Positions 38,268-40,429 of a stretch of 64,000 nt of DNA are shown in pieces. The DNA comes from a virus. The stretch's first letter is position 1. Each line of letters opens with the position of its first letter. Both the position numbers and the translations under genes were made by a program. Location of the stretch: IMG/VR virus record IMGVR_UViG_3300045988_161343. The stretch is one strand, 5' to 3'. Under the pieces are notes generated by a model that made no database searches, was not told the DNA's origin, and saw nothing but the letters and a program-made list of their open reading frames with translations.

Positions 38268-39566
38268 ATGTTAGAACCTAATTACTAGTATGCTGATTAC
38301 GTTTATACTTTATTTCCATCATGGAATGGAAAAATGATGAAAAGTTTAACTTTTCAAGTGACTGATGATTGTAATTTATGTTGCTCTTATTGTTATCAAA
38401 TAAATAAAGGACATCATAAAATGTCTTTTGAAATCGCTAAAAAATTTATTGATTATATATTTGAAGGACGAACTAATCCTGAATCATATTTTTATGAAGA
38501 AAAAATATTTGGATTCATTTTAGATTTTATTGGAGGAGAACCTTTATTAGAAATTGATTTAATTGATTAGATTTGTGAATACTTTGAAAATAAATTAAAT
38601 GAAATACCAAAAGATTCTCCATGGCAAATGTTCCATGTTTTTAGTTTATGCTCTAATGGAGTTTTATATTTTACTCCAAAAGTATAGAAGTTTTTAAAAA
38701 AATATGGAACATTTGCGTCAATAAATATAACTATTGATGGTTGTAAAGAATTACATGATAAATGCCGTTTATTCCCTAATGGTCAAGGAAGTTATGATTT
38801 AGCAGTTAAAGCTGGGTTAGATTTACTTAAAAAGGGCAATGAAGGAACTAAAATAACTTTTAGTCCAGATAATCTACCTTATGTATTTAAAGGAATAAAA
38901 AATATGATTGAATTAGGATTTAATAATATCTATGCTAATTGTGTTTTTGAAGATGTATGGACTAAAGAAGATTATATTAAAACTTATTATAATGAATTAA
39001 AAAAAATTGCTGATTATATCATTGAAAATAATTTACAAGATGATATTTATTTTAGACCTTTTGAACCTAATAATTATGCTCCATTAGAAATAGAAAAATT
39101 GGAAGAAAGATGGTGTGGAACCACTTCTAATATGTTTTCTTTAGATTGGAAAGGAGACATTTATACTTGTATTCGTTTTATGGAAAGTTCTTTAGGAAAT
39201 GATGTACCTCCTTTAATAATTGGTAATGTAGAACATGGTATCGGTTATACTAATTCTGAAAAATAGATATTAGAATCTTTTAAAAACTATACAAAAAAGA
39301 ATATATCTACTAAAGAATGCCTAGAATGTCCAATAGAAAGAGGATGTGCTTGGTGCGCTGGTTGTAGTTATCAAATGACAGGAGATTTATACCATAGAAC
39401 AACAACTATTTGTGAATGTCATAAAGCTGAATGTTTAGCTACTATATATTTTTATAAAAAACTAAATGATAAAAAAGCTTTAAATAGAATCGGTAAATTT
39501 AATTATAATTTTGTAAATAAAATTATTACTCAAGAAGAATACAATTATTTAATGAAGGAGGAGTAA
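38268..39566 (+). CDS. radical SAM enzyme with SPASM domain (amber-recoded)
   Basis: RBS aaggag then ATG 38268. DDCNLCCSYC CxxxCxxC motif. C-terminal CLECPIERGCAWCAGC...CECHKAEC. Track ORFs 38334, 38904, 39375 are the same frame. Confidence 0.6.
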
Positions 39567-39568
39567 TT

Positions 39569-40429
39569 ATGGCTTGTAACTCAGGACGAGATAGTAGAAC
39601 AATGGGTCGATATGAAGGCTCAGATAATTATCAACCAGGGCTACCAGGAGGAGCCTGTGAAACAGGCTGTTTCAATGGGGATAGTATGAATAGTGGAAAT
39701 ACTTGTTCTAGTTGCTCTGGCAATGATTGTGTAGCAGGTTGTGGAGAATGCAGTGGAGATTGCGGACCGAAGCGGACATGTGATACAGATTGTACTGGTG
39801 ATTGTGATAGTTGCACTGGAAATTGTGGCGGCTGTGATGGTTCTTGTTCTAGCTGTGAAGGCTCTTGCAGTGGAGGATGCTCTGGTACTTGTACAACAGC
39901 TTGTGCTGAACAATGTTCAGGAACTTGCTCTGGAGGTTGTATTGGACATTGTAATAACGGCTGTACAAGTGAAGAAGTAAATGAGTTAGAAAAGAATTTA
40001 CATATTTCTCGTATTGCAGAAAGTGATGACATAAATAATCTTAAAAAGGTTATTTATAGATTATTTGAAAATTTAAAAGTCAGTAAAATTTATAATGATA
40101 AAAATTATATAAATGAATTTGGTGATAATAGTGTTGCTGGTCTTGTAAGCAATTGGAATGAAGATGAAAATGGAAAAATGACATATACTATGTTATTAAA
40201 TAAAACCTTTGAAACTATTATTACTAATTTAAATAATTTAAATCAAGGACGTATTGTATTAGACCAAGATAAAATGAATCCTATTAAGATTTGGGATTTG
40301 GAAATCCCAGACCCAGATGATTTTACTAAAACAACAATAGTGCATTTAAACACCGTAGATAGAAATGCTGCATTATATTGGATTGAATGCGTAAAAAAAA
40401 TATTTACCTTAACAGCTCCTGTGAAATAA
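39569..40429 (+). CDS. protein with N-terminal Cys/Gly/Asp/Thr-rich repeat domain (about 45 Cys in 130 aa): candidate rSAM substrate
   Basis: CSSCSGNDCVAGCGECSGDCGPKRTCDTDCTGDCDSCTGNCGGCDGSC...; start 2 nt after the rSAM stop; TAG-free. Confidence 0.5.
   Translation: MACNSGRDSRTMGRYEGSDNYQPGLPGGACETGCFNGDSMNSGNTCSSCSGNDCVAGCGECSGDCGPKRTCDTDCTGDCDSCTGNCGGCDGSCSSCEGSCSGGCSGTCTTACAEQCSGTCSGGCIGHCNNGCTSEEVNELEKNLHISRIAESDDINNLKKVIYRLFENLKVSKIYNDKNYINEFGDNSVAGLVSNWNEDENGKMTYTMLLNKTFETIITNLNNLNQGRIVLDQDKMNPIKIWDLEIPDPDDFTKTTIVHLNTVDRNAALYWIECVKKIFTLTAPVK

Follow-up and report, generated by a model that had tools for sequence, protein, structure and literature searches.

A candidate CXXX-repeat maturation cassette in a TAG-recoded jumbo phage: a radical SAM/SPASM enzyme and its cysteine-array neighbor

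Does a radical SAM/SPASM enzyme encoded by a large phage modify the extremely Cys-rich protein that is encoded directly downstream, and, if so, which bonds are formed and what becomes of the product? The question is raised by a locus in the IMG/VR virus record IMGVR_UViG_3300045988_161343, of which a stretch of 64,000 nucleotides (in the following "the window") was analyzed. A sequence-only reading of this DNA had described a radical SAM gene with the motif CNLCCSYC and the SPASM motif CLECPIERGCAWCAGC, which stops 2 nt before a gene for a Cys-rich protein, and it had proposed that the two represent a thioether-forming maturase and its substrate, a pairing that was thought to be unusual for a phage. 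The open reading frame (ORF) of the enzyme (38268-39566) and its two motifs were confirmed, and its TAA stop codon is indeed followed, after 2 nt, by the ATG of the Cys-rich gene at position 39569. We regard it as probable that the locus is a phage cassette of the CXXX-repeat maturation type, in which the enzyme would install thioethers in a protein that stays intact.

The enzyme could be assigned to a known family. With TAG translated as Gln, it reached 391.8 bits with the NCBIfam model TIGR04115, and thus passed the curated family cutoff of 350 bits; residues 25-395 of the enzyme aligned with positions 2-359 of the 359 positions of the model. NCBIfam labels this family "radical SAM peptide maturase, CXXX-repeat target family". 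The enzyme was also aligned with two homologues from loci that use the standard code (three-sequence alignment A3). In this alignment the CX3CX2C motif (C35/C39/C42), the binding site of the SAM-cleaving [4Fe-4S] cluster, is invariant, and the same is true for all Cys of the SPASM set, i.e., C283...G296-x4-C301, C351-x2-C354-x5-C360-x2-C363, and C382, which were assigned by the pattern CX9-15GX4C, CX2CX5CX2-3C, and a further Cys, for two auxiliary clusters. On the basis of these motifs, the enzyme is assigned to the radical SAM superfamily and its SPASM subgroup. The match to PHROG 1802 ("radical SAM domain-containing protein") had an E-value of 1e-54, and the Fer4_12 model was passed, while PF04055 of Pfam scored 25.2 bits and stayed under its cutoff of 29.5. 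The sole match in PADLOC, a set of models for anti-phage defense systems, was that of the radical SAM core (residues 28-108) to viperin models with 31 bits, and the partner proteins did not match any of these models. Among solved structures, CteB comes closest (5WGG, E 1.6e-20), and the SPASM regions of the two proteins align with one another. The alignment begins at residue 93 of CteB. The N-terminal region of about 90 residues of CteB, which we take to be its RRE (substrate-recognition) domain, is absent from the phage enzyme.

The enzyme is encoded by a single ORF of 432 codons under one prerequisite, namely that TAG is a sense codon. The gene contains four in-frame TAGs, at codons 7, 101, 140, and 333, and no other in-frame stop codons, and the standard bacterial code splits it into three listed fragments. 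The sequence-only reading had read through the four TAGs without comment. The window encodes a suppressor tRNA with the anticodon CTA, which was detected by ARAGORN within a cluster of tRNA genes. In the plus-strand ORFs of the window, with TAG as sense codon, 150 in-frame TAGs were counted, compared to 358 CAA and 105 CAG; the TAGs cluster at 1-16 kb and 20.6-25 kb, with few of them at 25-38 kb. In the three-sequence alignment, both standard-code homologues have Gln opposite TAG codon 140, and opposite codons 7, 101, and 333 a Gln is found in one of the two. The tRNA(CTA) together with the Gln residues at the aligned positions therefore indicate that this large gut phage reads TAG as Gln. Such a recoding of TAG to Gln is already known for gut phages (bioRxiv 10.1101/2021.08.26.457843; PMC9523058). 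Synthesis of the full-length enzyme is therefore expected to depend on the tRNA(CTA) that the phage itself supplies. The gene of the presumed substrate does not contain any TAG in the window. The possibility that this is a regulatory feature was considered and rejected, because the substrate genes of the relatives contain one to five TAGs.

The composition of the presumed substrate, in the following called the CXXX protein, is extreme, but less so than had been thought: it has 27 Cys, and 26 of them are found in the first 132 residues, instead of the about 45 that had been reported for the first 130. The N-terminus carries the motif MACNSG, and the array follows at residues 30-132 with 25 Cys in 103 residues. 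Against the Cys background of 1.6% in the ORFs of the window, this corresponds to a binomial probability of about 2e-22, and in none of the other ORFs of the window does an array exceed five closely spaced Cys. The 24 gaps of the array, counted from C30, comprise 16 of the type C-x3-C, five of the type C-x2-C, and three longer ones. The pattern G-x-C-x-G-D/T-C of the sequence-only reading fits loosely only. The array was not generated by a recent tandem duplication at the DNA level, as the only repeat that was found is a 12-nt unit with 1.9 copies.

A search of 5.8 billion proteins led to 44 close clusters of the CXXX protein, all of them unnamed or annotated as "hypothetical", on metagenomic contigs with lengths of up to about 185-215 kb. 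In the alignment of this family the Cys columns are invariant or nearly invariant, and at most of the spacer positions S, T, G, A, N, and D replace one another. The best-kept part of the array is its last third, GGCxGTCTTACAEQCSGTCSxGCxGxCNxGC. The 154 residues of the C-terminal domain are conserved across the family as well as the array, and this domain seems to be confined to this phage family, because a phmmer search of 1.84 billion representatives resulted in 12 hits only. No match to the CXXX protein was found in Pfam, NCBIfam, PHROG, PADLOC, or the sequences of the PDB. Two relatives with 49% identity (P0038 and P0039) carry a precomputed Pfam label, PF27846.1. A tblastn search of the phages in GenBank gave no match, with a low-complexity filter that may mask the array, and a megablast search of the same phages with 12 kb of the window also gave none. 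AlphaFold2 (AF2) modeled the full protein with a predicted local distance difference test score (pLDDT) of 43, and the array was unstructured (pLDDT <32). Modeled alone, the C-terminal domain appeared as an alpha/beta domain, with a low confidence (pLDDT 58.8). Foldseek comparisons of the AF2 models with BFVD and the PDB did not retrieve any fold match (E >=0.1, template modeling score <0.4).

The decisive question is whether the enzyme acts on this neighbor, and it was addressed with the relatives of the enzyme. They were matched on 384 viral contigs of IMG/VR, the 80 best of which were retrieved, and by 88 hits in bacterial assemblies with one genome per species. The distribution over viral contigs shows that the pair is not as unusual for phages as had been assumed. 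As partner we counted a same-strand array with seven or more closely spaced Cys at a distance of not more than 4 kb. By this criterion, a Cys-array ORF was present in 134 of the 146 loci with an intact enzyme ORF. The 135 distinct array proteins have spacers of three residues in 84% and of two residues in 14% of the cases. In the window, the start codon of the enzyme at position 38268 is preceded by a strong ribosome-binding site (AAGGAG), and the gap of 2 nt between the two genes has a length of 2-3 nt in all jumbo-phage relatives. Moreover, two terminator-like hairpins enclose a 77-aa ORF, the enzyme gene, and the gene of the CXXX protein. The downstream hairpin has a stability of -22.2 kcal/mol and a z-score of -7.3, and none of 200 shuffled sequences was equally stable. 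The TIGR04115 match, the co-occurrence, and the shared terminators uphold the proposed pairing of maturase and substrate, and we consider it very likely that the enzyme acts on the adjacent CXXX protein. The thioether part of the earlier proposal follows from characterized relatives and is weighed below.

A different function of the array would be that of a metal-thiolate or Fe-S module, either metallothionein-like or as a cluster carrier, in which case the radical SAM enzyme would act elsewhere or would use the array as a cluster donor. With 24% Cys, small spacers, and no predicted fold, the array does resemble metal-binding Cys-rich proteins, and Cys are its only conserved residues. However, the enzyme and the array occur together in very different phages and bacteria in the 134 of 146 loci, the curators of NCBIfam defined the enzyme family by its CXXX target, the pair is accompanied by an accessory protein of its own, and none of the solved metal-binding proteins was matched in sequence. 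A plain metal-binding module, with the enzyme directed to another target, was also the outcome that the sequence-only reading had set against its own proposal, and the TIGR04115 assignment, the co-occurrence, and the hairpin-bounded cassette argue against it. We regard this explanation as improbable, while the array may bind metals before or after its modification.

The CXXX-repeat system is defined in NCBIfam by three parts, the TIGR04115 enzyme, the targets TIGR04114 and TIGR04117, and the accessory protein TIGR04116, labeled "CXXX repeat peptide modification system protein". In most of the loci, the gene directly 5' of the enzyme encodes a protein of about 100 aa, and the copy from a Lachnospiraceae genome passes the TIGR04116 model with 57.9 bits (cutoff 50). 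A profile was generated from 19 accessory proteins from loci other than those of the jumbo phages, including the member that passes TIGR04116. When it was compared by hhalign with a 95-aa ORF of the window, a probability of 92% and an E-value of 5e-7 were obtained over 92 columns, i.e., over the full length. This putative third component had escaped the sequence-only reading. In a more distant recoded phage (L013), the 95-aa homologue is found at a distance of about 500 nt from the CXXX gene. The 77-aa ORF directly 5' of the enzyme gene, whose position is kept in related jumbo phages, was tried as the accessory protein and rejected, because as a single sequence it had no significant match to the accessory profile and the 95-aa ORF is the better homologue. 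It also lacked a direct TIGR04116 hit. The family of five 77-aa proteins matched the accessory profile weakly, though end to end (probability 56%, E 1e-4), so that the 77-aa ORF may be a shortened second accessory protein. Scans with Pfam, NCBIfam, PHROGs, and PADLOC did not give any match for the 77-aa ORF, the 95-aa ORF, and a 184-aa ORF downstream of the cassette.

We propose the following mechanism for the cassette. The putative 95-aa accessory protein, and perhaps also the 77-aa protein, would present the array to the enzyme and would thereby replace the recognition domain that the enzyme lacks. The enzyme would remove a hydrogen at one of the carbons of a spacer residue, and this carbon would then be bonded to the sulfur of a Cys. 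Repetition of the reaction along the array would lead to a ladder of thioether cross-links, and the product would be the whole protein with a densely stapled, redox-insensitive N-terminal module.

The nature of the bond is deduced from the nearest characterized relatives, PapB and CteB. Because both of them make thioethers, we think, with moderate confidence, that the modification is a thioether as well. The comparison with maturases of the SCIFF and ranthipeptide types that had been suggested earlier did not place the enzyme in one of these families: it stayed below the cutoffs of PapB (NF047865, 183.7 versus 340 bits), SCIFF (TIGR03974, 113.5 versus 425 bits), and also QhpD (TIGR03906, 103.9 versus 453 bits). 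The match to the sactipeptide maturase RumMC was low (54 bits). Sulfatase maturase and cyclophane-forming maturases were also among the weaker matches. Many types of reactions are catalyzed within the group of SPASM enzymes. This diversity, together with scores under the cutoff of every characterized family, is what would speak for a different chemistry on the array, for example conversion of Cys to formylglycine as by anaerobic sulfatase maturases, epimerization, C-methylation, or C-C or C-O cross-links. Against this stand three observations. The four best-scoring characterized families and the closest structure are all formers of Cys thioethers; Cys is the one conserved feature of the target; and the array does not have the aromatic residues that cyclophane formers need. 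We therefore rate a chemistry other than thioether formation as unlikely.

PapB is a radical SAM/SPASM enzyme that acts on a repeated Cys-X3 motif and links each Cys by a thioether to an Asp or Glu that is C-terminal of it (PMC12373016). In the array of the window, an acidic residue is found in 10 of the 24 repeat units. In the wider family, 21.7% of 4249 units have an Asp or Glu, Gly accounts for 16-30% of the residues at each spacer position, and 4.3% of the units contain Gly and Ala only. The scarcity of acidic units and the occurrence of Gly at every spacer position therefore exclude a PapB-type link of Cys to Asp/Glu in every unit. Ser or Thr is present in 69% of the units of the wider family, and judged from the residues at hand, alpha-carbon or Ser/Thr acceptors would fit better. 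In the alpha-carbon linkage of sactipeptides, every residue can serve as acceptor, even Gly. Some of the repeat units may also stay unlinked.

The loci of the relatives show several architectures, which differ in the kind of protein that carries the array. Architecture (a) comprises the recoded phages of about 185-215 kb, including that of the window. The enzyme gene precedes the gene of the Cys protein, the array is N-terminal, and the surroundings are syntenic (NADAR, phosphoesterases, SPFH/flotillin, cassette, 184-aa ORF, PhoH, lysin). In architecture (b), found in temperate Clostridia phages and prophages, the array forms the C-terminal part of a protein of 170-400 aa and follows an N-terminal domain of about 100 aa; often a second protein that consists nearly completely of an array (265 aa, 64 Cys), the accessory gene, and the enzyme gene follow in this order. 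Architecture (c), of which locus L066 is the type, has proteins of 816-829 aa with an N-terminal array of about 41-44 closely spaced Cys and two glycine-rich PF12810 domains (323 bits), followed by the genes for the accessory protein, the enzyme, a GH25-CHAP lysin, and a holin. Architecture (d) represents bacterial clusters that resemble those for peptides that the ribosome makes and that are modified after translation (RiPPs), with an enzyme of 720 aa, Cys-repeat peptides of 50-100 aa, an accessory protein, and ABC transporters; in one example (L112-L126, in detail L120), agr-like genes adjoin. Architecture (e) is found in Margulisiibacteria, with many copies and proteins with up to 122 Cys. 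In Candidatus Termititenax and other Margulisiibacteriota (L131-L160), each of the many enzyme copies per genome adjoins a protein of 440-670 aa; the CXXX arrays of these proteins comprise 33-122 Cys, and each of the proteins has an N-terminal domain of its own type.

The bacterial clusters raise the possibility that the CXXX protein is a RiPP precursor, i.e., that the array is cross-linked, cut from the C-terminal domain as a "follower", and released at lysis as a poly-thioether peptide that serves as bacteriocin, signal, or host-manipulating factor. Short Cys-repeat peptides next to an accessory protein, ABC transporters, and, once, agr-like genes are typical for the bacterial family members, the closest characterized relatives of the enzyme are all RiPP makers, and lysis genes are found near the cassette. 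Nevertheless, neither a protease nor a transporter is encoded between the two terminators (38031-40429), and the protein has no leader-type N-terminus, but MAC and the array stand at its very start. Conservation of the 154 C-terminal residues equals that of the array, and the arrays of the phage relatives are parts of proteins of 170-830 aa, including one fusion to tail-fiber domains. We thus consider the release of a peptide to be unlikely. The lack of a leader, a protease, and an exporter, together with the conserved C-terminal domain, leads to the conclusion that the product most likely stays an intact protein.

What could be the role of such an intact, modified protein? The cassette is common in phages, and among the best 80 viral loci it usually lies among tail-fiber genes. 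Baseplate or tail-fiber homologues were detected not more than 8 kb from the enzyme in 60 of these 80 loci, a lower bound because the blastp screen was performed with a small set of reference proteins. A reverse transcriptase of the retroelement type was present in 24 of the 80, while the loci of architecture (d) had neither tail homologues nor a reverse transcriptase in the same screen. CXXX cassettes of temperate Clostridia phages, for example those of L092, L026, and L099, often have a reverse transcriptase (PF00078) and a large tail-fiber gene at a distance of a few kb, an arrangement that resembles phages with diversity-generating retroelements. In a prophage of Clostridium tyrobutyricum, the pair stands after homologues of baseplate J and Mu gp48, between a tail-fiber gene with PF12571 and the genes for holin and lysin. 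The PF12810 domain that is fused to the array in architecture (c) is also present in a tail-fiber-like ORF of the window (166.5 bits). The targets of temperate-phage relatives pass the TIGR04114 model, with 32.4 and 21.3 bits, and family scans with Pfam, NCBIfam, PHROGs, and PADLOC revealed nothing for their N-terminal domains.

The position of the relatives from Clostridia phages in baseplate and tail-fiber modules and the fusion to tail domains therefore make a structural or virion-associated role the most likely one, which by analogy is our best guess for the CXXX protein. For the phage of the window itself this assignment is tentative and of low confidence. Thioether cross-links would be expected to survive the reducing environment of the gut, and an oxygen-sensitive enzyme would be workable in an anaerobic host. 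A speculative idea is that phages of strict anaerobes use a radical SAM enzyme of their own to staple full-size virion proteins, i.e., components of the tail fiber or baseplate, into poly-thioether ladders as a substitute for disulfides that needs no oxygen and withstands reduction, and that the protein of the window is the jumbo version.

Several observations weigh against the interpretation as a thioether-installing cassette with a virion-associated product. The enzyme misses the cutoff of every characterized thioether family, and the target models TIGR04114 (cutoff 20 bits) and TIGR04117 (cutoff 50 bits) did not hit the CXXX protein, even with E-values of up to 10. The gene for the putative 95-aa accessory protein is 4 kb away and its product has no direct TIGR04116 hit. 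No usable AF2 model of the array could be obtained. In this phage, the cassette is located outside any tail module and is not adjoined by tail genes, and homology between the C-terminal domain of the CXXX protein and the N-terminal domain of the relatives in tail modules could not be demonstrated (hhalign E 0.11). Lastly, a publication on any member of TIGR04115 was not found in the searchable literature, subscription journals being outside the scope of the search. Within the same scope, no publication was found that describes the mainly phage-borne, tail-module pattern of this "peptide" system.

A homology of the C-terminal domain with the N-terminal domain of the temperate targets had been suspected because of a helix motif, D/E-D-I/F-x-x-L-K, as had a homology with the N-terminus of a 171-aa protein encoded at 8508-9023. 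Both were dropped (hhalign E 0.11 and 0.057, respectively).

The system appears to be largely phage-borne, with relatives in the 384 viral contigs, and its phage targets are proteins of 170-830 aa instead of short peptides, usually encoded among or fused to tail-fiber genes. If virion parts are indeed stapled by thioethers, phage structural biology would gain a post-translational modification of a new kind, and a new class of heavily cross-linked protein scaffolds would be added as well. The cassette of the window is compact and well delimited and thus a good test case; in a standard host, its expression will require the recoding of TAG to CAA.

The coordinates of the cassette and of further features of the window are compiled in Table 1.

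Table 1. Features of the CXXX cassette and other features of the 64,000-nt window
Feature	Coordinates	Strand	Remarks
Radical SAM gene cluster, second	6527-11847 (on to 16143)		directly after tail-fiber-like genes
Tail-fiber-like ORF	2729-5500		PF12810
Radical SAM protein, 667 aa	6527-8530		glycosyltransferase-like C-terminus
171-aa protein	8508-9023		C-terminal Ser/Tyr/Asn/His/Trp/Gly-rich repeat
Radical SAM/SPASM-like genes	8975-10477, 10477-11847		divergent
Three apparent paralogues, 280-310 aa	12100-12948, 12959-13891, 15268-16143		6-11 Cys each
Glycosyltransferase-like small ORF	13851-14486		flanked by the three paralogous ORFs
tRNA cluster	16209-20501		
Suppressor tRNA, anticodon CTA	19007..19081	+	within the tRNA cluster
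Secreted protein	25181-26317		two S-layer-homology domains
Vault-like protein	30765-33245		major-vault-protein repeat and shoulder domains
SPFH/flotillin-like membrane protein	36483-37862		just 5' of the cassette
Terminator-like hairpin and T run	37861..37892	+	3' of flotillin-like gene; marks 5' boundary of the cassette
77-aa ORF	38031..38264	+	directly 5' of radical SAM gene
Radical SAM/SPASM maturase gene	38268..39566	+	432 aa with TAG=Gln; TAA stop 39564-39566
In-frame TAG codons of the maturase gene	38286-38288, 38568-38570, 38685-38687, 39264-39266	+	
CXXX-repeat protein gene, presumed substrate	39569..40429	+	286 codons, ATG start
Cys array of the CXXX protein	39656..39964	+	25 Cys/103 residues
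C-terminal domain of the CXXX protein	39965..40426	+	residues 133-286, ~154 aa
Promoter-like site of the 184-aa ORF	40432-40460		TTGACA-17-TATACT
Strong hairpin followed by U run	40437..40479	+	directly 3' of CXXX gene; likely closing terminator
184-aa ORF	40488-41042		next gene after the CXXX gene
95-aa ORF, probable TIGR04116-like accessory homologue	44450..44737	+	~4 kb downstream, past PIN-PhoH, CHAP-amidase endolysin, and holin-like genes

The cassette is flanked on one side by the SPFH/flotillin-like and the vault-like genes and on the other side by PhoH and lysis genes. The vault-like protein matches PF11978 with 75 bits, and its gene as well as the flotillin-like gene are kept in related jumbo phages. 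The 184-aa ORF, which has its own promoter-like site, is always the next gene after that of the Cys protein among the jumbo relatives, and a copy with 37% identity is present in L013. The protein with the S-layer-homology domains (82 bits with PF00395) gives a hint that the host, presumably a Firmicute of the Clostridia type, has an S-layer.

The window contains a second cluster of radical SAM genes. All of its genes are rich in TAG and have a G+C content of 19-24%, and its enzymes match peptide-modifying radical SAM families weakly. The 171-aa protein, with its C-terminal repeat SYNASHRGSGYNSSWDSSDYGAGWDTSYNSSHDGSGYHSSYW, looks like another maturase substrate. The three apparent paralogues of this region share motifs and have no family match. 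Radical SAM genes were also observed in cultured jumbo phages of Erwinia and Salmonella, where two of them are adjacent (gp184 and gp183), for example in Erwinia phage vB_EamM_ChrisDB (L006, coordinates 2957-3175 and 4097-6332). Gp183 reaches 126 bits with PapB and 114 bits with TIGR04115, and a 72-aa ORF two genes upstream, gp186, ends in CGGSCSWTCSGGCSH, a short motif of the CXXX type. These genes may be a version of the same idea in phages of Gram-negative bacteria.

How does the cassette compare with systems that are already known? CteB, the maturase of the SCIFF peptide CteA (thermocellin), is the closest solved structure and can be aligned over the radical SAM core and the SPASM region. 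Six Cys are found in the about 45 residues of SCIFF peptides, compared with 25 Cys in the 103 residues of the window array. Sactipeptides, e.g., thurincin H, have a donor Cys at every fourth residue that is joined to alpha carbons. In contrast to the window array, they include a Cys-free acceptor half, with which a hairpin is formed. QhpD is a radical SAM/SPASM enzyme that introduces several intra-chain Cys thioethers into a subunit that is retained in a functional protein, and in this respect it resembles the reaction proposed here; however, its substrate QhpC and the context are unrelated, and the score of the phage enzyme is far under the 453-bit cutoff. PapB with its substrate PapA (the ranthipeptide freyrasin) is the second-best family match of the enzyme. 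It differs in that the score remains under the 340-bit cutoff, Cys-X3-Asp/Glu is not present in each repeat of the window array, and the substrate of PapB is a short leader-core peptide and not a protein.

The closest correspondence is with the CXXX-repeat maturation system, with which the cassette shares the TIGR04115 enzyme family, a target with a Cys at every fourth residue, and, probably, a homologue of the accessory protein. The three-part system and the enzyme family are already known as definitions of NCBIfam. In contrast to that system, the target of the window is missed by TIGR04114 and TIGR04117 and combines, in 286 aa, an N-terminal array with a C-terminal domain that is peculiar to its family; the putative accessory gene is separated from the pair by 4 kb and its product is too diverged for the TIGR04116 model; and the phage, with a genome of about 185 kb, is TAG-recoded, so that the enzyme gene needs a suppressor tRNA. 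Taken together, a target architecture that is missed by the target models, the setting in a recoded jumbo phage, and the separated putative accessory gene are the features of this cassette that are new.

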